Shown here: positions 28,028-63,889 of the stretch, one piece after another
Layout of the letters: each line of letters opens with the position of its first letter
Position numbering within the stretch: the stretch's first letter is position 1
Source: a virus
Taxonomy: Duplodnaviria > Heunggongvirae > Uroviricota > Caudoviricetes
Virus record (IMG/VR): IMGVR_UViG_3300027797_000011
DNA: 64,000 nucleotides
Strand: one strand, 5' to 3'
Program-made: the position numbers and the translations under genes
Notes under the pieces: model-generated
Told to the model about the DNA's origin: nothing
Databases searched by the model: none
Seen by the model: the letters and a program-made list of their open reading frames with translations, nothing else

Positions 28028-28852
28028 TCAAATAGCAAACAATTCTTTTACTTCTTCTCGAACATCATCGTACGGTACAATGTTAATTGCTTGATTTTGG
28101 AAGCTATCTAAAATAGTTTTAGTAGCAGTTAATATATCAAGTCCTTTACTTTGCAGATAGTAAAGTTTATCGAGATTTAAGTGATCTGTTGTGGAACCTA
28201 AGGAAGATACAACCTCGTTGCAATCGGTGTAAATGTCAGGCCTACTGCGGCATCTACCGTTTTCTCCTATTATAAAGTTTCCGCTTTCAATGTGTGCTTC
28301 ACTACCCTCTGACCCTTTATCGAGAACAGTCATCCCTTGAAATACTGTTTGACTGTCCTTTCCGGCAACTCCAAGAATAATCTGATTACTACTAGAATCA
28401 ATATGTTGATGAATAATCTTTGTAATAATTTCAGTGTCGCCGCCCACGGTATTCATCATAAGACCATACGAATTAAATTCAGCACCTTCTTCTAAATATA
28501 CTTGGATAATGTGTTTGTTGAATTTTCCGTTTTTAACAAACATTCCAAAATTGATTCCAGCGCCTTCCGCTACATGAATATCGTACAAAAATACCTGTTG
28601 TAGTTTATGATCTGCTTCGTTAATTACAATTAAATCCAACTTACCCTCGGGCTTAACTTGAATCTTAATATGTTTTGCTAACAATTCCTTTTCTGTAGGA
28701 TTTTGCCGCAGTACCATAGTATTGCTGTGACCTTCTGCAAGCTCAACGGTGCTAGCCTCAACAACTTTAAACTCTTTACCAAAATATTTTTCTGGGGAAT
28801 ATTGCCAATCTGGGTCGCCTTTTTCAGCTTTGAGAAAACTGTGAATAGCCAT
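28028..28852 (-). CDS. sufD: SufD/SufB-family Fe-S cluster assembly protein (shortened, 274 aa)
   Basis: C-terminal CRSRPDIYTDCNEVVSSLGSTTDHLNLDKLYYLQSKGLD aligns to the SufBD signature SRPELEIYADDVKCSHGATVGxLDxxQLFYLxSRGI. Confidence 0.65.
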   Translation of the reverse strand: MAIHSFLKAEKGDPDWQYSPEKYFGKEFKVVEASTVELAEGHSNTMVLRQNPTEKELLAKHIKIQVKPEGKLDLIVINEADHKLQQVFLYDIHVAEGAGINFGMFVKNGKFNKHIIQVYLEEGAEFNSYGLMMNTVGGDTEIITKIIHQHIDSSSNQIILGVAGKDSQTVFQGMTVLDKGSEGSEAHIESGNFIIGENGRCRSRPDIYTDCNEVVSSLGSTTDHLNLDKLYYLQSKGLDILTATKTILDSFQNQAINIVPYDDVREEVKELFAI

Positions 28853-29591
28853 CTTCTATTATCCTTTTATATAATTCTGGACCACCATGTTCTTTAATTT
28901 CCCCGTCTACAATAACATGCACATGGGTAGGAACAATCATGTCTAAAAATTGTTGATTATTTGTAATTACGGCCATTGATTTTTTACCATCTACATAGCT
29001 GTTTAAAACGGCGCCTAATATCTGTAGGTCTTCTTCCTCTAAATTAGAATCTATTTCATCTATAATGACAAAATCTGGATCTAACATCAACATCTGAAGA
29101 ATTTCGTTTTTCTTAAATTCTGATAGATTCATAAAATCGTAATCCATCATCGCATCCCCATGCCCTGATGGTAATTCGAGCATAGTACACAATACCTTAT
29201 AATCTTTTTCTAATTCGTTTTCGGAACGAGTATCTTTCTTGGCTTTCATCATAGCTTTAATTAGGTCTATGTTTCTAAGCCCGTAGATTTCTGGAGGATT
29301 TTGAAAAGTTGTGTGTATACCTAACTTTGCCCTATCCTCACAATCTAATCTAGTTATGTTTTTATGTTTAAAAGTAATCGATCCCTCAGTTTGAATTATT
29401 GAAGGATGCCCGGCAATTAAATGAGCAAGACTGCTTTTGCCAGAATGTTTAGGGCCCAAGATTGCATGAATCTCGCCCTGTTTGATGTTTATTGATATAT
29501 TTTTTAGTAGGTCTTTAGTATCAACTACCGCAGACACGTTTTTTATTGTTAGCATTGTTTTTATTATAAAGGTTTCAAACTCTCTTGTCAA
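28824..29591 (-). CDS. sufC: SufC-like ABC ATPase
   Basis: Walker A ILGPKHSGKSSL. The region NLSEFKKNEILQMLMLDPDFVIIDEIDSNLEEEDLQ matches SufC [36 protein letters not shown]. 255 aa. Confidence 0.75.
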   Translation of the reverse strand: MTREFETFIIKTMLTIKNVSAVVDTKDLLKNISINIKQGEIHAILGPKHSGKSSLAHLIAGHPSIIQTEGSITFKHKNITRLDCEDRAKLGIHTTFQNPPEIYGLRNIDLIKAMMKAKKDTRSENELEKDYKVLCTMLELPSGHGDAMMDYDFMNLSEFKKNEILQMLMLDPDFVIIDEIDSNLEEEDLQILGAVLNSYVDGKKSMAVITNNQQFLDMIVPTHVHVIVDGEIKEHGGPELYKRIIEDGYSQFSQS

Positions 29592-29708: not shown

Positions 29709-29981
29709 ATGGAATATATCATTGGTGTTATTTTTATTGCCTTAGTAGCGTTCTTTTTTCTTAACAGAAAACAGATCGAGGTAATCGAGGAAGTTAAAGC
29801 TGTAGAAAAAGCTGTAGTTGAAGAAGTTAAGGCGGTTGAAGCAGTAGTTGAAGAAGTAGTAAAGAAAGTACGTAAACCACGTGCTACTCCTGCTACCTCG
29901 GCTGCTAAGAAGCCGGCCACTAAGAAGCCAGCCGCTAAAAAAGCTGTAGTTAAGAAACCTACTACTTTAAAGAAGGCGTAA
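29709..29981 (+). CDS. small membrane-anchored protein with VEEVKAVE repeats and a histone H1-like Lys/Ala/Pro basic tail
   Basis: RBS AGGAA 9 nt upstream. N-terminal TM IIGVIFIALVAFFFL. C-terminal AAKKPATKKPAAKKAVVKKPTTLKKA. Terminator follows. The overlapping minus ORF 29630..30016 looks like a mirror artefact. Confidence 0.6.
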   Translation: MEYIIGVIFIALVAFFFLNRKQIEVIEEVKAVEKAVVEEVKAVEAVVEEVVKKVRKPRATPATSAAKKPATKKPAAKKAVVKKPTTLKKA

Positions 29982-33348: not shown

Positions 33349-33462
33349 CTCTAGTCTCCTTTATTAAGGTAGCAAGTTTGACGACATGCAGAGTTTATAA
33401 AGCGGGATGAATGACGTGAAAAGTCCGCTGATGACTTATTATATAGACTACTATTTAACTTG

Positions 33463-33792
33463 TCAATCCCTATTGGGTAAAGTTCTTAGTATTTCTTTTC
33501 TTATATGCTTTATATCTTCAATGATATCTTGTAAGATTTCTCTATCGTTAATTTTGATAGTAATCAGTTCTTTAGTGATTCGCATAGTCCAATACCACCA
33601 TACTATAGTTAACAGCAAGCCACCTGCTCCTACTAACCATTCTAGTTTATATTGATATATTGTTGCCCAATCAAAAATGATGCCTAATACTGATACCAGT
33701 ACTATTGCGCTAAGAGCCATCCATAATTTACGTTGCTTTTCGAATTGCCTTAAAGTTTGAATTTGAGTTTGAATTTGAGTTTGATTTTCCAT
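33463..33792 (-). CDS. membrane protein (109 aa)
   Basis: Two hydrophobic helices; QIQTQIQT repeat at the N-terminus. Confidence 0.5.
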   Translation of the reverse strand: MENQTQIQTQIQTLRQFEKQRKLWMALSAIVLVSVLGIIFDWATIYQYKLEWLVGAGGLLLTIVWWYWTMRITKELITIKINDREILQDIIEDIKHIRKEILRTLPNRD

Positions 33793-34799: not shown

Positions 34800-35610
34800 C
34801 GTCTCGTATCCGAGTATGGGTGTTCCTACTATTTAGCAGGATTACGGCAAGCCTACGTCCTCGGTCCTTTATAATCATAACCAAGCAACCACCAGATTTT
34901 TGTATCCAGCCTGTCTTACTAAGGCCTATACTAGTGTCTTTAACAACCAGGGAATTTGTTGTACGGAAATCAACAAAATACGATTTCTTTCGGCCGGGAA
35001 CTTGTATTCTTTTGCTGGTTTTTGTTGAAAAATTCCTAATAATGTCAAATGCGTAAGCATAGTCTATTAACTTAGCCAGATCAATAACTGTGCTAACATT
35101 CTCTTCAAACAGTCCTGTAGGATCGACAAATCTTGTATTGTGCATACCCAATGAGTCAGCAGTAGCATTCATCGCGGCCAAGGCCGATTCTTCTCCCCCA
35201 GGATAATTTTGAGCCAGGACTTTTGCGGCAACATTGTCACTGCTCATCAAGGACAACAATAATAAATCAGATCTAGTTATTTTTGTGCCATTGGGAAGTC
35301 TAGAATGAATTCCCTTAGTTTTGTTGATGGTTAAAACTTCATCTAGCTTTTGATGGGCATTTAAAACCACTACCACAGTCATTAGTTTAGTAATAGAAGC
35401 AATGCTTCTTATTTCTTGACTGTTTTTTTCTTTAAAAACTTCCCCAGTATCGAGATCTTTAACAATATAATTTGTTGCTAAGATTCCGTTCTGGGGACGT
35501 ATTGTTGATTTTTTGTTTTGTTTTGCAAACGCAGATGTGGATAACACCGCTACAATAAGTAGAGCATTAATTGCGTTTTTTAACAATTTGATCAATAAGT
35601 CCATATTCAA
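34747..35610 (-). CDS. D-alanyl-D-alanine carboxypeptidase (PBP5/6-type serine peptidase), secreted
   Basis: Signal peptide; SxxK (SIASITK), SxN (SSDN) and KTG (LSKTGW) motifs. Confidence 0.8.
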
Positions 35611-36157
35611 GGGCCTCCGAGGCGCTCATGAATTTATCCCTTTCCATGTCCATAATTAACTGATCATATGTCTTGCCCTTGCTGTTATGATCCACATAGA
35701 TCTGAGTGAGGGTCTTTTTCATCTTTACAATTTCAGCAACTTGAATTTCCATGTCAGTAGCCTGTCCACCGGCACCGCCACTAGGTTGGTGAATCATATG
35801 ACGAGCGTTTGGTAGCATATAGCGTTTACCAGGAGCACCAGAAGTGGCAAGTAAACTTCCCATGCTACAGGCTTGTCCCATAACATAGGTACATACATTG
35901 GGTTTAACAAACTGCATTACATCGTAGATTGCCATGCCAGATGTTACTACACCACCCGGGCTATTGATATAAAAGTGAATATCTTTGTCGCAATCGGCAC
36001 TCTCTAAATGCAAAAATTGTGCAACAATAGTAGCCGCACTCTCATCGCCTACTGGGCCATTTAAGAAGATAATACGCTCATTAAGTAACCGACTGTAAAT
36101 ATCAAAGGCACGTTCGCCTGTACTGGTCTTTTCAATGACCATTGGGATTAAATTCAT
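35567..36157 (-). CDS. clpP: ATP-dependent Clp protease proteolytic subunit ClpP
   Basis: Catalytic Ser in [10 protein letters not shown] and His in HQPSGG. 196 aa. Confidence 0.9.
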
Positions 36158-38848: not shown

Positions 38849-39022
38849 AAATAAAATTACGATCACGGTCATTACTAGAATAGCTAATAATGAAACAATT
38901 ATACTATATGCGATAGATTTTGTCAACGTCCAACGTTCCCTACCGTTGAGATTTCTCCAGGCAGTAATGCCAAAGTGAATAAGAATTGCAAGTATAGCAA
39001 AAGCTAACCAAAGTCTAATCAT
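38849..39022 (-). CDS. small double-TM membrane protein (58 aa)
   Basis: Internal ATG with AAAGGAG RBS. MIRLWLAFAILAILIHFGITAW...LLAILVMTVIVILF. Confidence 0.45.
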
Positions 39023-43283: not shown

Positions 43284-43315
43284 GATGTTTCTTTCTTAAT
43301 ATAGTAATTATACAG

Positions 43316-43624
43316 TCAAATCTTAACTTTGTCAAATCTTAAATAAAATTCTGACAACTTTTTCTTTTCCAATTCTGCAACAATTACATATTGATGTCCA
43401 TAATTGTATGGATCGGCCCGCCTGTGCCAAATTGGAGTTTCAATAGCATGTTCCATAACAAACTTGCCTGCTTCGCTTTCTTGCCATTCCCAGAGTGGTT
43501 GTGCGGCATATAAGTCCGGATCTTCAACATCACCCATACTGAATTTATGTACAACTACTTTGTGTATTTCTTCTACACAACGATAGCCGTCTTTGTCATA
43601 TTCACGACATCTCACTTTGTCCAT
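43316..43624 (-). CDS. hypothetical protein (102 aa)
   Basis: ORF track. Confidence 0.5.
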   Translation of the reverse strand: MDKVRCREYDKDGYRCVEEIHKVVVHKFSMGDVEDPDLYAAQPLWEWQESEAGKFVMEHAIETPIWHRRADPYNYGHQYVIVAELEKKKLSEFYLRFDKVKI

Positions 43625-47896: not shown

Positions 47897-47988
47897 TAAT
47901 ATTTCCTTTTAAAAGATGATTTATAAAATCATTCTCTATTATATATCCGCGTTAACTACAATGTCAACAGATATTGGTTTATTATTGC

Positions 47989-50749: not shown

Positions 50750-50773
50750 AAAAAAAAGCCCACCGAAGTGGGC
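50750..50773 (-). terminator. rho-independent terminator of the tmRNA coding piece
   Basis: Minus sense: GCCCACUUCGGUGGGC followed by U8. Confidence 0.7.
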
Positions 50774-50779
50774 TTGGTG

Positions 50780-51110
50780 GTTTCTGTTACGAGGTATTTC
50801 CTACCCTAGGCGGCTGTTAGGCGGCCAATGCGAACTGTTCGTCGTTTGCGTTTACGTGTTGTGCTTCTACGACCGAGTTACCCCAATCCTACGGGTTCTG
50901 CTTTCCCGAGCTGTCCACTCATTTACTTGTTGCCCTGTCGAAACTATGCATCCCCATCAAAAGCATACTATTTTAGTCTGAGCGCATCACATGCGACTTT
51001 TTAACTCAACGACCTAGTATGCTTATGGTGGAGATGGGGGGATTCGCACCCCCGTCCAGAACACTTTTCTCTTTGCTTCATACAGCAATAACCTACAGTA
51101 TATATTTATT
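50780..51110 (-). ncRNA. ssrA: circularly permuted two-piece tmRNA (ssrA). Acceptor piece at about 51026-51110 ending CCA; intervening hairpin 50956-51025; coding piece 50955 down to about 50780. Tag ANDEQFALAA.
   Basis: Minus sense. The 3' end GGACGGGGGUGCGAAUCCCCCCAUCUCCACCA has a T-arm and acceptor. The 5' start GGGGAUGCAUAGUUUCGACAGGG lies 70 nt downstream of the CCA in transcription order. Acceptor GGGGAUG/CAUCUCC has a G3-U70 pair. Tag frame GCA AAC GAC GAA CAG UUC GCA UUG GCC GCC UAA. The spacer forms an AAGCAUACUA/UAGUAUGCUU stem. Confidence 0.8.
51075..51092. repeat. 18-bp direct repeat copy 1 (GCTTCATACAGCAATAAC)
   Basis: Identical copy at 51567..51584; extended imperfect similarity of about 34 bp. 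Confidence 0.8.
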
Positions 51111-51446
51111 CAGAGGAGTTGTCAATAACCTGTTACGCCAAAACTCTCGGGCCGCATCGCTTTGTTCATCGCTTGGAACTAGTACTCCGTCAATCTCACT
51201 TTGCACAATGTCGTACATCACCGTGGCAACACCCGTTCGTTTGTAACCGGAATATACTTCAATGTGATGCGGATACCATTTGTTATCTCTATCATACTTG
51301 AAAACTGCTGTGGAGATTTTTTTAGACCGAACTTTGTTTTTAATTACGGATACAGTGAATATAAGACTGCATTTATTTTTGGTGTAATCGTAAACAACTT
51401 GTTCTTGAGTTTTAATCAAAGAACAGACCAACTGATAGTCTGACAT
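51093..51446 (-). CDS. small GNAT-family acetyltransferase (117 aa)
   Basis: HIEVYSGYKRTGVATVMYD matches the GNAT acetyl-CoA-binding motif A (R/Q-x-x-G-x-G/A). Confidence 0.55.
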   Translation of the reverse strand: MSDYQLVCSLIKTQEQVVYDYTKNKCSLIFTVSVIKNKVRSKKISTAVFKYDRDNKWYPHHIEVYSGYKRTGVATVMYDIVQSEIDGVLVPSDEQSDAAREFWRNRLLTTPLNKYIL

Positions 51447-54017: not shown

Positions 54018-54255
54018 CTTGCCCTCCTTTCTTTAATATGTCTCTTTTACAATTTTAAATTCTGTTGTCGGATACTTTGCTTTAAACTCTTCAGTCTTGA
54101 CGTAATCGTTATAGTGCTTTGCATCAAAAAACATACGATGGAAAACTGTTTTGTGATCCAAGGTAGTTACTGTGAGATAAACTGATTTTGCTTTGCCAGC
54201 CATTATATGCCTTTCACTGTTTAATGTAATATTATAACATCAGACACAGAGTCTG

Positions 54256-54840
54256 TCAAGGTATTAATTTTCTACGTTCTCGTCTCTCAGCCGCTAATGT
54301 AAAAACTTTCTCATTGTCATTGGTCCAGTCTATTGCTTTCTTAGGAATGATCAAACCTGACTCGAGTGTCACCCCATTAATAGAGTGCGGCTCATTTTCA
54401 TCATAGGTCCATCCTAGGTGTTTCATCATGCGATGCTTGACTAACAGGTTGGGACTACGAAAAACTTCAGTATCATCAAACCCCATCATGACACCAAGCT
54501 CGCAAACTGCACCGCTACGACATACACCTGCTACACAATGCACAATGACGTTCATCCTATTCTCTAATGCATGTTGCAATAATCGAACAAGCTCGGCGGC
54601 CTGCTCGTGACTGCAACGCATAGATTCTTCAAGTGCAAAATCCTTTTCTTCAATGTCTAAAAATTCAAACTGATGAACTTCTTTGAACGTATATTTTGGT
54701 ACAGGAAAATCACCAGGCGGATCCACAATCTGAATCAGCATGGCATTAACTCCGGGGTCAAAATGAAACCCTTTTTTGATGTCGCTTAGTGCAACGTTTT
54801 GAATCCATGGCATAATTGCCTCCTTAACATTCAATGTCAA
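54256..54840 (-). CDS. dual-specificity / tyrosine protein phosphatase (CX5R)
   Basis: Active-site signature VHCVAGVCRSGAV. 194 aa. Confidence 0.75.
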   Translation of the reverse strand: MTLNVKEAIMPWIQNVALSDIKKGFHFDPGVNAMLIQIVDPPGDFPVPKYTFKEVHQFEFLDIEEKDFALEESMRCSHEQAAELVRLLQHALENRMNVIVHCVAGVCRSGAVCELGVMMGFDDTEVFRSPNLLVKHRMMKHLGWTYDENEPHSINGVTLESGLIIPKKAIDWTNDNEKVFTLAAERRERRKLIP

Positions 54841-59855: not shown

Positions 59856-59932
59856 TGGTCGGTGTGACACGATTCGAACATGCGACCACTGCGTCCCAAA
59901 CGCAGAGCTCTACCAAGCTGAGCTACACACCG
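59856..59932 (-). tRNA. tRNA-Pro (anticodon GGG)
   Basis: Acceptor CGGUGUG/CACACCG; anticodon arm CUGCG-UUUGGGA-CGCAG; T-loop UUCGAAU; CCA encoded. Confidence 0.8.
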
Positions 59933-60171
59933 TTATTCTTCTTTCTAATTTTCATTCCAACATAAGTTCCGCAAAACGCACCTGCCATTGCCGGAATCAT
60001 CAACCAATGGTTAGTTGTATAATTTATAACTGCTATGCTTCCTAATATATAACATGCTACTGACCAAAAACTTGCTCCCAGCACATTGTCATTTGCTACA
60101 CATCGCAGATAGTAAGTATACACAACGTCAAGTAAAAAAATTGCAAAAAATGTTGTAATGTAATCTATCAT
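59923..60171 (-). CDS. small polytopic membrane protein (82 aa)
   Basis: ORF track; 2-3 TM helices. Confidence 0.45.
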   Translation of the reverse strand: MIDYITTFFAIFLLDVVYTYYLRCVANDNVLGASFWSVACYILGSIAVINYTTNHWLMIPAMAGAFCGTYVGMKIRKKNNGV

Positions 60172-60175
60172 ACTA

Positions 60176-60250
60176 CTGGTACCTGGTCACGGTTTCGAAC
60201 CGCGGACCTTCGCCGTGTAAAGGCGTTGCTCTACCCCTGAGCTAACCAGG
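60176..60250 (-). tRNA. tRNA-Val (anticodon UAC)
   Basis: D-arm UAGCUCAGGGGUAGAGCA; anticodon loop UUUACAC; T-loop UUCGAAA; CCA encoded. Confidence 0.8.
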
Positions 60251-60257
60251 CAATATC

Positions 60258-60494
60258 TTATTCGTCAGTTTTTTCTGCAATATATTCTGCTAGTCTAGCT
60301 TGATATTGTTCTTCTGTCAAGCCGTGCCAACCGCAACAATTACCAGTTGGACTGCGGCCGCAACCGCATGTACCTTTTTTCATTTCTTCTACACTTGGTG
60401 ACATATTTCTCTTTCCAAAAATTGCATCATAGTTATTGCCAAACTTTTCTTGGCTAACACTATATGGACGAGGTCTACTTCCTTTAGACATCAA
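60258..60494 (-). CDS. SEC-C motif zinc-binding small protein
   Basis: CGCGRSPTGNCCGWHG resembles the SecA C-terminal CPCGSGKKYKxCHG metal-binding motif. 78 aa. Confidence 0.5.
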   Translation of the reverse strand: MMSKGSRPRPYSVSQEKFGNNYDAIFGKRNMSPSVEEMKKGTCGCGRSPTGNCCGWHGLTEEQYQARLAEYIAEKTDE

Positions 60495-60676
60495 TCACTT
60501 CCTACATCCGACTCAGTACGAGTCTTTTTCTCCCTGACGGGTTTAATCAACGATGCAAGTTCTGCTTGAACTGTACTACGTAAAAACTCTCCACGCTTAT
60601 GTGGATCAAGGATTTGTGCCGCAAATCGCTTTGCTTGTGAACTCATTTTGTAACTAGGACCTGGTTTAATATACAT
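60491..60676 (-). CDS. hypothetical protein (61 aa)
   Basis: ORF track. Confidence 0.45.
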   Translation of the reverse strand: MYIKPGPSYKMSSQAKRFAAQILDPHKRGEFLRSTVQAELASLIKPVREKKTRTESDVGSD

Positions 60677-60695
60677 TATTACCTCTTAAAAAAAT

Positions 60696-60785
60696 TGGCG
60701 GTGTGACTGAGACTCGAACTCAGAAGCCGGATTACGCCGACCGACAGATTAGCAATCTGCTCTAATACCATTATAGGACCACACC
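60696..60785 (-). tRNA. tRNA-Ser (anticodon GCU), type II
   Basis: Anticodon loop UUGCUAA; long variable arm CGGUCGGCGUAAUCCGGCU; T-arm CUGAG-UUCGAGU-CUCAG; CCA encoded. Confidence 0.8.
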
Positions 60786-60950
60786 AATAATTGATAGCAC
60801 TCGCCGTCTATGACAACGTGTCTATTTAGGAGTCCTGCGCTAACAGTTCCAAAGCATCTAACAGCAGTTATATTAGACTTCGCACCATGCCAGTGGATGT
60901 CGTGTAGTATATGCGTCCATATACGATACCTGCCGAGAGCTATCAATTAT

Positions 60951-61034
60951 TGGTGCCCCAGGTCGGACTCGAACCGACACGCCTTTCGACACTGGCTTCT
61001 AAGACCAGCGTGGCTACCATTACACCACCGGGGC
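60951..61034 (-). tRNA. tRNA-Leu (anticodon UAG), type II
   Basis: Acceptor GCCCCGG; anticodon arm CUGGU-CUUAGAA-GCCAG; long variable arm; T-arm GUCGG-UUCGAGU-CCGAC; CCA encoded. Confidence 0.8.
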
Positions 61035-61107
61035 AAAATTCAACAGGTTAATACTAGTTTAATGACCTAGCAGTCGCCATTTTTAAATCGCTGTAATTAA
61101 CCTAAAC

Positions 61108-61181
61108 TGGTTGCGGGTCCCGGAATCGAACCAGGATCTCGAGCTTATGAGACTCGTGAGTTACCGTTTCTCTAACCCGCG
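61108..61181 (-). tRNA. tRNA-Met (anticodon CAU) with C1-A72 mismatch (initiator-like feature; could also be Ile2/elongator)
   Basis: Anticodon arm CGAGU-CUCAUAA-GCUCG; T-arm CCUGG-UUCGAUU-CCGGG; acceptor CGCGGGU/ACCCGCA; CCA encoded. Confidence 0.7.
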
Positions 61182-61400
61182 ATAATTTTTACTTGCGTCT
61201 TTTTTGAGTTTTAACAAATAATCTTTTCCGATTTTTCCTTCTTCAATTTCTCGTAGGGCTGTAACAATTGGCCCACCTTTCTTACTTACCAAAGGCATGT
61301 GTCCCCGTGTTAATTCCCGGGCACGAATAGATGCAACTAATACTAGATCGTATCTATTACCAATTTGTTCAACTGCTAACTGACTTGTAATACGTGCCAT
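61161..61400 (-). CDS. rpoZ: DNA-directed RNA polymerase omega subunit (RpoZ)
   Basis: MARITSQLAVEQIGNRYDLVLVASIRARELTRG...VTALREIEEG aligns to E. coli RpoZ [33 protein letters not shown]...VIALREIEEG. 79 aa. Last about 20 nt overlap the tRNA-Met 5' end. Confidence 0.8.
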   Translation of the reverse strand: MARITSQLAVEQIGNRYDLVLVASIRARELTRGHMPLVSKKGGPIVTALREIEEGKIGKDYLLKLKKDASKNYRGLEKR

Positions 61401-61458
61401 TGTTTAATTCCTTTATGTATTGATTATACAGTAAATCTAATTTATTGTCAATACCTTT

Positions 61459-61532
61459 TGGTGCTCTAACGTAGAATCGAACTACGATTCCTGTCATACC
61501 AAGACAGTGTTCTTCCATTAAACTATAAGAGC
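61459..61532 (-). tRNA. tRNA-Thr (anticodon GGU)
   Basis: Anticodon arm CUGUC-UUGGUAU-GACAG; T-arm CGUAG-UUCGAUU-CUACG; CCA encoded. One acceptor mismatch at 6-67. Confidence 0.75.
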
Positions 61533-61735
61533 AATGATTGGTACCCCTAGGTACGAAAGCGGTAAATATTTGTATGAAGACATACGAAAGCGTTACCCCC
61601 GGAGGATTACACTTTCATCTATCATTACATGAGGGTGTCTGCATCGTTATGGTTCGAGATATCTACGATATAGAACTAACTGTGCGATATTTTACCAACG
61701 TCAACAAAGCACTTCGCTTTATCAATAATTTGTGA

Positions 61736-62668
61736 TTAGATTATTCCAACAGAGGATAATGTTGTAATTTTTCTAAGAGGCTTGCTTTGTACTTTTGGTT
61801 TGATATCTTCAACAAATGCGTCAAATTGATCAAACGGTATTTTATGTTCTTGACGTCCTTCACCGAAAAATTCCTGAACAATCATTCCTTCGGGACTTTC
61901 TAGAAAAAATATTTGTCCAAATTCATATTCATACGGAATCTTAAAATCCTTTCCGGCTAACTTTAGCACAATATTTTCTTTTATGTCTTTAATCATTTCT
62001 GTTAATGATTGTCTGGTATTGTCCCACATGCAATTTTTATAAGCAAAATTACTGTCAATTTCTTCAACAAAGTCAATAAAATCTTGATTTAACACACGTA
62101 ATAGTTTAAATTCATCTTCATACATGTGATCTGCAATCAAAATATTAACATTCTTAAGAGAAGTTCTTTGTTTAATTTCTCTCATAGTTTGTCTAATCAC
62201 TTGCAAGTATTCACCTTGAAACTCTTCATCAACTACTAGGTTGATTTTTAAGTTGGGAATATTCTTAGCAAAAAGTTCAATATTTTTAAAGTATTTGTCC
62301 GGTAACTTGTTATCTCTTAGCACTTCCATAAAGTGTAAACTGATTGTCATGTAAAACTTGTCTTTGTGCTCAAGACTATCAATAAATCTCTTATAGTGCC
62401 ATGTGCTTAGAGTACCGTTAGTATAGGTATATGTTTTTGCCTTCTCAGTCGCTTGATTTACTAGATGTTGAAATCCTTTAAGCAACAAGGGCTCACCACC
62501 ATTTAAAACAAAACAAGTTTCATCATGGTATAATTCTAAGAGTTTACCAACTTTAGATGTATAATAATTGAAAGGACGTACATCTTGATCAAAATAATTA
62601 TAACAATACTTGCAACCTATATTGCACTTTGTAAACAGTTGATATACTAAGCAGAGTTTCTTTTTCAT
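61736..62668 (-). CDS. radical SAM enzyme (unassigned subfamily)
   Basis: CxxxCxxC cluster CNIGCKYCY and glycine-rich VLNGGEPLL. Start moved to the internal Met (MKKKLCLVYQL) because the longer track ORF would run through the tRNA at 62726..62802. No C-terminal SPASM cysteines. 310 aa. Confidence 0.7.
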   Translation of the reverse strand: MKKKLCLVYQLFTKCNIGCKYCYNYFDQDVRPFNYYTSKVGKLLELYHDETCFVLNGGEPLLLKGFQHLVNQATEKAKTYTYTNGTLSTWHYKRFIDSLEHKDKFYMTISLHFMEVLRDNKLPDKYFKNIELFAKNIPNLKINLVVDEEFQGEYLQVIRQTMREIKQRTSLKNVNILIADHMYEDEFKLLRVLNQDFIDFVEEIDSNFAYKNCMWDNTRQSLTEMIKDIKENIVLKLAGKDFKIPYEYEFGQIFFLESPEGMIVQEFFGEGRQEHKIPFDQFDAFVEDIKPKVQSKPLRKITTLSSVGII

Positions 62669-62725
62669 GTTAAGCCTTATTGGTAACATTCTATTTATTT
62701 CTATTATCTTGGCCAGGACAAGTAA

Positions 62726-62802
62726 TGGTACCCCTGGGCAGATTCGAACCGCCAACCAACAGATTTTAAGTCTATCCGCACTACCAATTAGCGTACAGGG
62801 GC
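62726..62802 (-). tRNA. class-I tRNA with anticodon UAA (Leu anticodon, but only a 5-nt variable loop)
   Basis: Acceptor GCCCCUG/CAGGGGU, discriminator A, CCA. D-arm UACGCUAAUUGGUAGUGCG. Anticodon arm AUAGA-CUUAAAA-UCUGU. Variable UGGUU. T-arm GGCGG-UUCGAAU-CUGCC. Confidence 0.65.
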
Positions 62803-62872
62803 ATTGAATGGGCTTCTCACCCAATTGGCCCTAGACGGACTGTCGATAGTTCTCTTTCACACTATCCTGGTT

Positions 62873-62949
62873 TGGTACCTTCGGGCGGATTCGAACCCCC
62901 AACCACCTGCTTCTAAGGCAAGCCGCACTACCAATTAGCGTACGAAGGC
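62873..62949 (-). tRNA. class-I tRNA with anticodon UAG (Leu anticodon, short variable loop), paralog of 62726..62802
   Basis: Same D-arm UACGCUAAUUGGUAGUGCG; anticodon arm CUUGC-CUUAGAA-GCAGG; variable UGGUU; acceptor GCCUUCG/CGAAGGU; CCA encoded. Confidence 0.65.
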
Positions 62950-63108
62950 ATTATAAGGCGGGAGCCCGACTATCTTGTTGTTAGCAAGCCTCATCGGATT
63001 GTCTCGAACACAAGAGTTTATACTACCTTATAGTCGTCTGCGGTGTCACATGGCCAACCAAAGCCATGCTAGACTATCTGGGACTCATTGTGTCGTCTAT
63101 CCCTAAAC

Positions 63109-63185
63109 TGGTACCCCGTGTCTGATTCGAACAGACAGCCAACTCCTTTTGAGAGAATCCGCACTACCAATTAGCGTAACGGGGC
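63109..63185 (-). tRNA. class-I tRNA with anticodon CAA (Leu anticodon, short variable loop), third paralog
   Basis: Same D-arm; anticodon arm AUUCU-CUCAAAA-GGAGU; variable UGGCU; T-arm GUCUG-UUCGAAU-CAGAC; acceptor GCCCCGU/ACGGGGU; CCA encoded. Confidence 0.65.
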
Positions 63186-63194
63186 ATAAAAACT

Positions 63195-63269
63195 TGGTCC
63201 GGCCTAGAAGAATCGAACTCCTATTCACAGGGTAGAAGCCTATTGTATTTTCCATTATACGAAAGCCGG
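63195..63269 (-). tRNA. tRNA-Arg (anticodon UCU)
   Basis: Anticodon arm AUAGG-CUUCUAC-CCUGU; T-arm AGGAG-UUCGAUU-CUUCU; acceptor CCGGCUU/AGGCCGG; CCA encoded. Confidence 0.7.
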
Positions 63270-63278
63270 AAATAAAAC

Positions 63279-63370
63279 TGGTACCAGCGGAGGGGATCGA
63301 ACCCTCTCAAGAACGCTAATCTGGCGCTAAAAGGCTTATAAGACCTCTCTGACTTCCAAGTCTCGCTGGC
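63279..63370 (-). tRNA. type II tRNA (long variable arm) with unusual anticodon loop CUUAUAA (apparent anticodon UAU); identity uncertain (Leu/Tyr/Ser-derived?)
   Basis: Acceptor GCCAGCG/CGCUGGU, A73, CCA. T-arm GAGGG-UUCGAUC-CCCUC. Variable-arm hairpin AGCGC..GCGUU. Non-standard D-arm. Confidence 0.5.
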
Positions 63371-63377
63371 AATAATT

Positions 63378-63466
63378 TGGCGGGGGGATGGTAGAATCGA
63401 ACTCCAACCTCGTTAAAAGTCCATCTGTTTTCAAGACAGCGCAGGGCCCAGCCCCGATAACCCCCC
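63378..63466 (-). tRNA. tRNA-Ser (anticodon UGA), type II, with imperfect T-stem
   Basis: Acceptor GGGGGG/CCCCCC, discriminator G; anticodon loop CUUGAAA flanked by CUGU/ACAG; long variable region; CCA encoded. Confidence 0.5.
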
Positions 63467-63467
63467 A

Positions 63468-63543
63468 TGGAGCGGGTAGCCGGTATCGAACCGGTCTACT
63501 TCAGTTTGGAAGACTGATGTGTATCCATAAACACCTTACCCGC
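63468..63543 (-). tRNA. tRNA-Gly (anticodon UCC)
   Basis: Acceptor GCGGGUA/UACCCGC; anticodon arm UCAGU-CUUCCAA-ACUGA; T-loop UUCGAUA; CCA encoded. Confidence 0.75.
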
Positions 63544-63548
63544 ATAAT

Positions 63549-63622
63549 TGGTACTTCGTTGGAGAATTGAACTCCCATCTACGCCATGTCACGGCATTGT
63601 TCTGCCATTAAACTACCGAAGC
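63549..63622 (-). tRNA. tRNA-Val (anticodon GAC)
   Basis: Anticodon arm AUGCC-GUGACAU-GGCGU; T-loop UUCAAUU; acceptor GCUUCGG; CCA encoded. Two stem mismatches. Confidence 0.55.
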
Positions 63623-63630
63623 ATTATTTC

Positions 63631-63798
63631 TTTTCTTGTACTTTTCTAAGACTATCTTTCTTTACTAGACAATCTCGTTGTGTGCCATCTTTAAAAACTC
63701 GTAGATATTCTATGCCGTCTATTACACGGATGTCTTTGGTGTCTTTACAATAGAATTTTTCTTTGTTAAAGACATTTTCAAAAAATAATGTTTTCATG
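63631..63798 (-). CDS. small hypothetical protein (about 55 aa)
   Basis: By-eye translation MKTLFFENVFNKEKFYCKDTKDIRVIDGIEYLRVFKDGTQRDCLVKKDSLRKVQEKK between two tRNAs. Confidence 0.35.
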
Positions 63799-63813
63799 AT
63801 CTACTCCTATATA

Positions 63814-63889
63814 TGGCGTCCCTAACGAGATTCGAACTCGTGTACCCAACGTGAAAGGCTGGTGTCCTAGGCCTCTAGACGATAGGGAC
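63814..63889 (-). tRNA. tRNA-Glu (anticodon UUC)
   Basis: GUCCCUAUCGUCUAGAGGCCUAGGACACCAGCCUUUCACGUUGGG...UUCGAAU...UAGGGACGCCA. Near-identical architecture to E. coli tRNA-Glu. Confidence 0.85.

Follow-up and report, generated by a model that had tools for sequence, protein, structure and literature searches.

A 64,000-nucleotide (nt) stretch of viral DNA (IMG/VR record IMGVR_UViG_3300027797_000011), called the window throughout, carries two genes that are true, divergent homologues of the iron–sulfur (Fe-S) cluster assembly genes sufC and sufD, and the two form one translationally coupled unit. The window is jumbo-phage DNA related to phage PA5oct, and sister phages have, at the same genome position, a fuller SUF locus of which the sufCD-only pair is the reduced state. 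The pair is under strong purifying selection despite the loss of canonical catalytic-cycle residues, and from the ratios of nonsynonymous to synonymous substitution rates (dN/dS), together with an inverted order of conservation, it follows that the pair is maintained for function, with SufD as the more constrained partner. Our best guess, to which we assign a probability of about 40% on the basis of the sequences, is that the two products would form an early-expressed, SufB-independent complex of the C2D2 type that handles iron or clusters, and a canonical role in a SufBC2D complex is unlikely.

Identity and arrangement of the two genes

The initial annotation had recognized a phage-borne SufC–SufD pair by motifs that do exist in the proteins as quoted, and both genes were confirmed on the minus strand within 28028–29591 (Table 1). 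The open reading frames (ORFs) as called span 28824–29591 and 28028–28852, the upstream one encoding the SufC homologue and the downstream one the SufD homologue. The upstream end had to be amended to 29555: because SufC homologues have 238–244 amino acids (aa), the start of sufC is the ATG at 29555 and not the TTG at 29591, and this TTG begins with the first base of the −35 hexamer TTGACA. SufC is thus full length (243 vs. 248 aa in Escherichia coli), and the earlier description of both proteins as shortened holds for SufD alone (274 vs. 423 aa). The end of sufC overlaps the start of sufD by 29 nt, compared with 26 nt in E. coli, and a Shine–Dalgarno sequence AGGA is found at 28865–28862, 9 nt 5′ of the sufD ATG; overlap and AGGA indicate a translational coupling of the kind known for E. 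coli sufC and sufD.

When the SufC-like protein was compared with the NCBIfam profiles, it reached 195.2 bits with TIGR01978 (SufC) vs. 69.9 bits with the next ABC family, UrtD, and it could be aligned end to end with E. coli SufC (PDB 2D3W/5AWF; 146 bits). The SufD-like protein reached 120.8 bits with TIGR01981 (SufD) vs. 39.5–42.7 bits with the SufB models, and 104.1 bits with the Pfam profile PF01458 SUFBD_core, whose gathering threshold is 27. A profile of 83 members of this SufD family, compared with the PDB, matched E. coli SufD with 68.4 bits, SufB with 48 bits, the M. mazei SufBD 4DN7 with 35 bits, and the M. jannaschii SmsB (MJ0034) with 20.8 bits. The SufC and SufD identities that had been proposed from the letters alone were therefore upheld by the profiles. 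Both proteins nevertheless fall below the curated equivalog cutoffs (195.2 vs. 212.8 bits for TIGR01978, 161.7 vs. 400 bits for NF007134, and 120.8 vs. 222 bits for TIGR01981), and because these cutoffs and the tests of defining residues failed for both proteins, they would best be called SufC-like and SufD-like, SUF-derived proteins, and not bona fide SufC and SufD; where we write SufC and SufD of the phages below, this is for brevity.

An AlphaFold2 model of the SufD-like protein, built on the family alignment (pLDDT 92.1, pTM 0.89), contains fourteen beta-helix strands that are followed by three helices. In a Foldseek comparison with the PDB, SufB, SufD, and SmsB chains alone were found at E ≤ 0.001, with the SufD chain 5awf_B giving the best superposition (TM 0.79, root-mean-square deviation 2.3 Å), and tailspikes, tail fibres, and other beta-helices were not significant. 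The gene encodes the beta-helix core and the C-terminal three-helix SufC-binding domain, whereas the N-terminal domain is mostly gone: besides a short W-x-[YF]-[ST]-P motif, the alignment to E. coli SufD begins near residue 200. A generic ABC ATPase next to an unrelated beta-helix or tail fibre protein was considered and is ruled out by the profile margins and by Foldseek, as neither protein had its best matches there. Membership in the archaeal SMS system is likewise ruled out, in this case by the SmsB profile score (20.8 vs. 68.4 bits for SufD) and by the absence of the SmsC cysteine triad.

Three states of one SUF locus in a jumbo-phage family

The clamp loader encoded in the window has its best match in Pseudomonas phage PA5oct (54% identity), ahead of Atu_ph07, Phosso, SCTP-2, and RsoM2USA, and the nearest matches of its UvdE endonuclease are in other jumbo phages; a D-Ala-D-Ala carboxypeptidase and a Band-7 protein are also encoded. 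The phage setting assumed for the pair is thus confirmed by jumbo-phage genes, tRNAs, and a transfer-messenger RNA (tmRNA) in the window, and near-identical DNA was not found in GenBank phages. All ORFs of the window were searched with E. coli SufA, SufB, SufC, SufD, SufS, SufE, IscS, IscU, IscA, IscR, IscX, HscA, HscB, and Fdx, and no other Suf or Isc genes were detected besides the flagged pair. The earlier statement that the pair occurs without SufB, SufS, and SufE consequently stands for the window and, in 41 relatives, for ±10 kb around the pair, while the whole genome is beyond its scope.

An IMG/VR scan with a SufD alignment yielded 50 viral loci with 36–75% identity, and three loci were added by exact-protein look-up. 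Over the 55 related loci from metagenomes and IMG/VR that were compared, this genome position has one of three gene contents, of which the sufCD-only one occurs in 41 loci and in the window. Type I loci consist of sufB-sufC-sufD-sufS-sufE and an A-type carrier gene, sufA (L042–L044, L055), type II loci of sufC-sufD-sufS-iscU-iscA (L045–L054), and type III loci of sufC-sufD alone within ±10 kb (L001–L003, L006–L041, and the window). Because the flanking phage genes are common to all three types, namely those for ClpP, an S11 peptidase, PTPS, and UvdE upstream and for a giant protein of 2000–2600 aa downstream, types I–III represent a single locus of one phage family in different states. The short SufD of about 274 aa is present in all three types. 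A neighbor-joining tree of SufC, calculated without bootstrap, shows the phage family as monophyletic with respect to E. coli and other viral-contig SufC sequences, and in this tree, which carries no support values, type III is a single clade that is sister to types I and II. As the type I SufB keeps the positions of E. coli Cys405 and EHE(432–434), the type I SUF operons look functional from their sequences. On the large type III contigs, IMG/VR scans gave no match to sufB, among the best 80 of 100 matches, or to sufS, with phage-type patterns.

In a large protein database, the family has at least 239 SufD-like and at least 461 SufC-like relatives, with metagenomic contigs of up to 372 kb. 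Every complete protein among the 120 best SufD-like ones has 272–275 aa, and the 120 best SufC-like ones have 235–244 aa save three longer calls. When 1.84 billion representatives were searched with the SufD family, 12 were found at E ≤ 1e-30, including six full-length clusters at 303–468 bits; the next scores were at most 107 bits, and canonical SufD proteins of 380–450 aa had no more than about 105 bits. When 185,579 GTDB species genomes were scanned with patterns of the family, no close relative of the short SufD was found, and there is little sign of a cellular or prophage gene, as the only GTDB hits are two distant ones (24–25%), in Ruminococcus and Ruminiclostridium. Neither the sufCD-only pair nor the short SufD was found in GenBank phage genomes. 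The matches that do occur there, in MaAM05 and in annotation-free Listeria, Enterococcus, and Staphylococcus “phage” records, are not relatives, since they are 22–38% identical and belong to full-length bacterial-type suf operons, and suf operons of the MaAM05 type look like cellular DNA inside phage records. In Microcystis phage MaAM05 itself (MW495066.1, 267786–273195, our locus L005), a full-length sufB-sufC-sufD-sufS-iscU operon forms the end of the genome together with panB and panC. Among IMG/VR contigs that were collected via the phage SufB (L063–L138), there are further reduced SUF forms, such as a solitary sufB, sufB-sufC-sufS-sufE with a SufC of 217–220 aa, and operons with a mini-SufD of 151–194 aa; other contigs of this collection have a canonical sufBCDS and may be cellular contamination.

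Residues lost and gained

SufC of the window keeps the Walker A motif GPKHSGKS, the Q-loop Gln85, the Walker B pair Asp166–Glu167, and the SufC-type sequence KKNEILQM, and the equivalents of Lys40, Gln85, Asp170–Glu171, and Lys152 are all present and conserved in 116–120 of 120 homologues. In these type III homologues, the Walker A Lys and the Walker B Asp are invariant (120/120 each), the Q-loop Gln is found in 119/120, and Lys or Arg occupies the Lys152 position in 120/120. What has been lost is the ABC signature (MNLSEF for FSGGE) and the H-loop His203, which corresponds to Asn199. The degenerate signature had already been noted in the initial annotation, and the alignment, which places LSEF where SGGE is expected, confirms it. 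The S-G-G signature is missing in all 120 type III homologues, the H-loop residue is His in 87 and Asn in 25 of them, and a few type III sub-clades also lack the catalytic Glu. The only cysteines of the window SufC are Cys72 and Cys123, with none at the C-terminus. In the sister phages, SufC of type I is wholly canonical (GPNGAGKS, SGGEKKKNE, ILDEIDSGLD, ITHQ), and that of type II is partly degenerate, with SAGE or STPSE as signature and Asp-Asp for the Walker B Asp-Glu. The ATPase motifs were lost stepwise, in parallel with the genes, sufB going first and sufS and the carriers later, and because motif decay parallels partner loss, the comparison suggests that the SufC ATP cycle is constrained mainly by its work on SufB.

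In SufD, the ligand check proposed by the initial annotation had a negative outcome. The position of His360, which is the sole SufD residue found essential by mutagenesis in E. coli (PMC5571166), is Leu218 in the window and varies in type III (Ile, His, Tyr, Leu, and others), whereas it is His in 8 of the 9 distinct type I and II SufD sequences. Equivalents of the SufB residues Cys405 and Glu434 do not exist either, as type III SufD has Ser or Asn at the former position and Gly at the latter. Cys35, Cys59, Cys78, and Cys211 are invariant in SufD of types I and II (L042–L055), and at these sites, type III has Thr, Leu, or Met35, Ala59 (100%), Asn78 (100%), and a partly kept Cys211. The first three of these cysteines are spaced by about one beta-helix rung in the sister-clade SufD, an arrangement that recalls the sulfur-relay tunnel of SufB and is unusual for SufD.

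Type III SufD has also gained residues. Cys201 is invariant within a motif G-R-C-x-S-[KR]-P and precedes, by four residues, the Pro that is aligned with SufD Pro347; Glu37, Asp91, Gln117, Asp139, Gln168, Glu189, and Asn192 are further gains that are invariant or nearly so and that differ in types I and II. In the SufD family, 34 columns are invariant across 83 sequences with identities down to 50%, and the conserved polar residues form a stripe along one sheet of the beta-helix. The relation of Cys201 to the His360 position was derived from the alignment and from the strand spacing in the model, which is about 29 residues per two-strand rung. According to the model, Cys201 and position 218 are in the last rungs before the C-terminal helices, and by analogy, these rungs would correspond to the region of the cluster site in the SufB–SufD heterodimer (PMC5571166; PMC6006206).

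Selection on the pair

Pairwise dN/dS values within type III (Nei–Gojobori) are 0.04–0.20 for sufC and 0.02–0.08 for sufD. In 95% of the type III pairs, SufD is the better conserved of the two proteins (mean identity 0.52 vs. 0.44), and this order is reversed in canonical sufBCDS loci including E. coli, in which SufD has 0.32 vs. 0.51 for SufC and is the higher one in 1% of the pairs. That the pair is a decaying, functionless remnant of a lost operon would agree with the loss of canonical motifs, but we regard this as extremely improbable: besides the low dN/dS values (0.02–0.20 for both genes), the constant length of 272–275 aa, the 34 invariant columns in 83 sequences, and the conservation of the gene overlap and of the promoter described below all speak against it, and the dN/dS values and the steady length exclude a pseudogene.

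Promoter and expression

The pair appears to be driven by its own consensus host-type promoter (Table 1). Its −10 hexamer and the sufC ATG are 7 nt apart, with no Shine–Dalgarno sequence in between, and because the −10 element abuts the start codon in this way, the arrangement implies a sufC mRNA that is leaderless or nearly so. There are seven perfect TTGACA-N16-18-TATAAT sequences in the window, all on the minus (coding) strand, compared with 0.05 expected by chance, which suggests that a set of phage genes is read by the unmodified host sigma-70 polymerase, and among the seven, that of sufC alone adjoins its start codon. The arrangement recurs in 32 of the 36 non-redundant type III loci, where the sufC ATG follows, 5–7 nt after the end of the −10 element, a promoter that matches the consensus at 9 or more of 12 positions. 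No abutting promoter was found in type I and II loci, where Shine–Dalgarno-like sequences are found instead.

A possible function of the SufC–SufD pair and its alternatives

In our preferred model, SufC and SufD would still bind each other as a SufC2D2-type complex, which would be made early by the host RNA polymerase from a leaderless transcript. SufC would still bind ATP and hydrolyse it poorly or not at all, without the normal signature-mediated ATP sandwich, and SufD would be the more constrained and functionally central subunit. At its last beta-helix rungs, which correspond to the dimer-interface and cluster-site region in SufBC2D, SufD would have a remodelled site that is built around Cys201, flanked by Arg200 and Lys/Arg204, and accompanied by Asp139, Gln168, Glu189, and Asn192. 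In this SufB-free state, the complex may hold iron or a nascent cluster, or pass it on, and so feed the host Fe-S machinery and hence the phage Fe-S enzymes, rather than being a complete scaffold itself. We favor a C2D2-like complex because SufD gained invariant residues and because the nucleotide-binding loop of SufC and the SufC–SufD contacts are kept. A role in holding iron or clusters is proposed because, in E. coli genetics, the amount of iron on the scaffold is linked to SufD and to the ATPase of SufC (PMC6006206), because sister phages invest in Fe-S assembly, and because the window encodes a radical-SAM enzyme. The more specific version of this model, a functional SufB-free Fe-S or iron machine of the SufC2D2 type in which a pseudo-ATPase SufC gates a SufD with a Cys201-centred site, is a tentative one that we consider possible at clearly less than even odds. 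Several points weigh against the preferred model. E. coli SufD was never shown to bind iron or a cluster alone (PMC6006206), and Cys201 has been placed at the dimer-end site by alignment and strand periodicity and not by coordinates. One invariant Cys per SufD chain would be few for a cluster site, and SufB or a desulfurase could be encoded in the part of the phage genome outside the 64 kb; the IMG/VR scan for SufB comprised the best 80 of 100 matches. Furthermore, an inhibitory role or a role outside Fe-S metabolism would explain the sequence pattern equally well.

One alternative, the main idea of the initial annotation, would be that the phage SufC and SufD replace host subunits on the host SufB, so that a hybrid SufBC2D boosts Fe-S assembly. 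The conserved SufC and SufD families and contact surfaces, the complete SUF systems of sister phages, and the high SufD conservation, which could reflect a conserved host partner, would all fit. However, the essential His360 (PMC5571166) is a Leu here and variable in the clade, and the ATPase is needed in vivo (PMC6006206), yet the signature is lost in 120 of 120 type III homologues and the H-loop His in many of them, with Asn in the window; a phage copy that simply sustains the host SufBC2D, as the initial annotation had considered, is therefore not supported. In E. coli, ATP-driven SufC dimerization opens the SufB–SufD interface and thereby exposes Cys405 and His360 (PMC6006206). As the SufC ATP cycle thus acts on the SufB interface, a plug-in of the phage pair into host SufB is weakened, and the absence of His360 weakens it further. 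Across the phage family, moreover, the decay of the ATPase motifs coincides with the loss of sufB, which suggests that the ATPase cycle matters only with a SufB partner and argues against canonical work with one, and overall, we regard a hybrid complex as rather unlikely. As its alternative, the initial annotation had named a dominant modulator of the host complex. Retained binding surfaces in combination with lost catalytic and ligand residues are also the pattern expected of a pseudo-enzyme inhibitor, and the strong early-type promoter would suit a dominant-negative pair or decoy that binds host SufB, SufS–SufE, or SufC and shuts down or redirects the host SUF system early. Such a decoy is unlikely in our opinion, since the systems that sister phages have at this locus are complete and apparently functional, the phage itself encodes at least one Fe-S enzyme that requires a cluster, and the gained invariant SufD residues (Cys201, Asp139, Glu189, and others) suggest a new active site and not mere binding.

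It is conceivable that such a site makes SufC2D2 a self-sufficient minimal scaffold, which would build clusters with Cys201 of each protomer as interface ligand, like SmsCB/SufB2C2, and with sulfur from sulfide or from a host persulfide. We judge this, including the sulfur source, to be unlikely as well. The cluster of the M. jannaschii SMS system is bound by three C-terminal SmsC cysteines, whereas the phage SufC has Cys72 and Cys123 only; the family profile is far from SmsB (20.8 bits), the ATPase motifs that known systems need are degenerate, and there is one conserved Cys per SufD. On the other side stand the two-gene architecture, the invariant new Cys in the terminal rungs with its basic flanks, the stripe of conserved polar residues on one beta-helix sheet, and the fact that two-gene SufBC systems are proven scaffolds (PMC12192291, PMC12584684). 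An exaptation outside Fe-S metabolism, for example as a nucleotide-gated adaptor, a counter-defence factor, or an assembly factor, would be consistent with the loss of all known functional residues and with the position next to a giant baseplate-like structural gene. This adjacency is only positional, however, as sister phages have sufS, sufE, iscU, and sufA between sufD and the giant gene, and Foldseek gave no likeness to tail fibres or tailspikes. PADLOC yielded weak generic ABC matches only, by which a defence-system reading was rejected, and we find an exaptation quite unlikely.

Comparison with known SUF systems

The nearest characterized counterparts are E. coli SufC2D2 (PDB 2ZU0) and SufBC2D (5AWF), which comprise the same two protein families and show the same kind of gene overlap. 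As in E. coli SufC and SufD, the beta-helix with the C-terminal helical domain, Walker A and B, the Q-loop, and the Lys152/Glu171 pair are kept in the phage. Unlike in E. coli, the phage locus lacks SufB, SufS, and SufE, SufD lacks about 150 N-terminal residues and His360 and has the invariant Cys201, and SufC lacks the ABC signature and, in the window, the H-loop His. SufC2D2 of E. coli has been held in a review to be probably not physiological (PMC6006206), and in contrast to this, the CD-only pair is under selection in the phage. The sister SUF loci (L042–L055) share the phage backbone, the locus, and the short 274-aa SufD, and their SufC and SufD belong to one monophyletic family with those of type III. 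They differ in that their SufC motifs are fully or partly canonical, their SufD has the His and the ladder of Cys35, Cys59, Cys78, and Cys211, and their start is led by a Shine–Dalgarno sequence. The archaeal SMS/SufB2C2 system (SmsCB; PDB 9H78) is likewise encoded by two genes, for an ATPase and a beta-helix partner that form a C2B2 heterotetramer, but unlike the phage pair, it has an active ATPase and carries its cluster on C-terminal SmsC cysteines, the [4Fe-4S] ligands being Cys218, Cys239, and Cys242 (PMC12192291). According to the sequences, the origin of the phage pair is a SUF operon of bacterial type and not SMS. Fe-S biogenesis genes are a recognized class of viral auxiliary genes, represented by sufE, nifU, iscU, and A-type carriers (PMC8940887, citing Sharon et al. 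2011). The virome genes in those reports are single carrier, scaffold, or sulfur-transfer genes, whereas the phage locus described here has a SufCD pair. In the literature, we found general reports on Fe-S auxiliary genes only, and no description of a SufCD-only pair with degenerate motifs or of the short SufD family.

SufD is the least understood core component of the SUF system; a single residue is known to matter, and in vitro evidence has never been obtained for the proposed role of SufD in acquiring iron. In the phages, C and D are the only parts that strong selection has preserved across dozens of sampled jumbo-phage lineages, which hundreds of metagenomic protein clusters represent; in the course of evolution, the usual order of conservation has been inverted, the ATPase signature and the known SufD ligand have disappeared, and an invariant Cys has been added. 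The three locus states in one phage family thus provide a comparative series for the interdependence of the SUF parts, in which the sequences suggest that no constraint acts on the SufC ATPase motifs unless SufB is there. The known range of viral Fe-S auxiliary genes is also widened by the complete SUF operons and the several reduced forms on viral contigs. If the pair is indeed a SufB-free machine, it would be the first natural evidence for a physiological SufC–SufD complex and would open the function of SufD, long unresolved, to direct experiment.

Other features of the window

Table 1. Features in the window (positions are those of the whole stretch).
Feature	Position	Strand	Remarks
Two-AAA+ “ATP-dependent protease” ATPase, 754 aa	4983–7247	minus	phrog_4871, 828 bits
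Baseplate-wedge-like giant protein, 1943 aa	22121–27952	minus	baseplate-wedge and virion-structural PHROG matches
sufD-like gene, short, 274 aa	28028–28852	minus	PF01458, TIGR01981, AlphaFold and Foldseek
sufC/sufD overlap, 29 nt	28824–28852	minus	sufC end over sufD start; present in all related loci
sufC-like gene, 243 aa	28824–29555	minus	TIGR01978, E. coli SufC alignment, motif table
Sigma-70 consensus promoter	29563–29591	minus	TTGACA 29591–29586, 17-nt spacer, TATAAT 29568–29563; 12/12 match
Small ORF between uvdE and sufC	29709–29981	plus	N-terminal hydrophobic helix
R67-type-like ORF, 73 aa	32678–32899	minus	just downstream of PTPS/QueD gene, one-base overlap
ClpP	35567–36157	minus	Pfam, 257 bits
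tRNA genes, 18	40680–63889	minus, all	densest 59856–63889
Permuted (two-piece type) tmRNA	50753–51139	minus	tag peptide ANDEQFALAA
Radical-SAM enzyme	61736–62824		CX3CX2C motif
Perfect sigma-70 promoters	29563–29591, 33438–33466, 38898–38926, 43307–43335, 47938–47967, 54231–54259, 61423–61451	minus	

The giant gene is located directly downstream of sufD, and its protein, which in relatives is 2100–2600 aa long with YHYH, cadherin-like, and He_PIG domains, is a constant neighbor downstream of the SUF locus, whichever of the three states the locus is in. With respect to the ClpP and the protease ATPase encoded in the window, a Clp protease has been linked to SUFB turnover in chloroplasts (bioRxiv 10.1101/2024.11.01.621566); a connection of the phage Clp proteins to SUF would be pure speculation.

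The tmRNA matches the Rfam families beta_tmRNA with 118 bits (gathering score 84) and tmRNA_permuted with 119 bits, and a permuted tmRNA of this beta type hints at a betaproteobacterial host or source. Three tRNA-Leu genes with different anticodons are among the tRNA genes of the window, as is an unusually long call of 92 nt for tRNA-Ile(tat) at 63279–63370. The small ORF between uvdE and sufC encodes a Lys/Ala/Pro-rich tail that is histone-H1-like, and a counterpart of 101 aa is found at the same place in three type III loci (L001–L003). By eye, the 73-aa ORF downstream of the PTPS/QueD gene is closely similar to the R67-type (type II, trimethoprim-insensitive) dihydrofolate reductase, and its 67-aa counterpart in relatives carries the Pfam domain DHFR_2.

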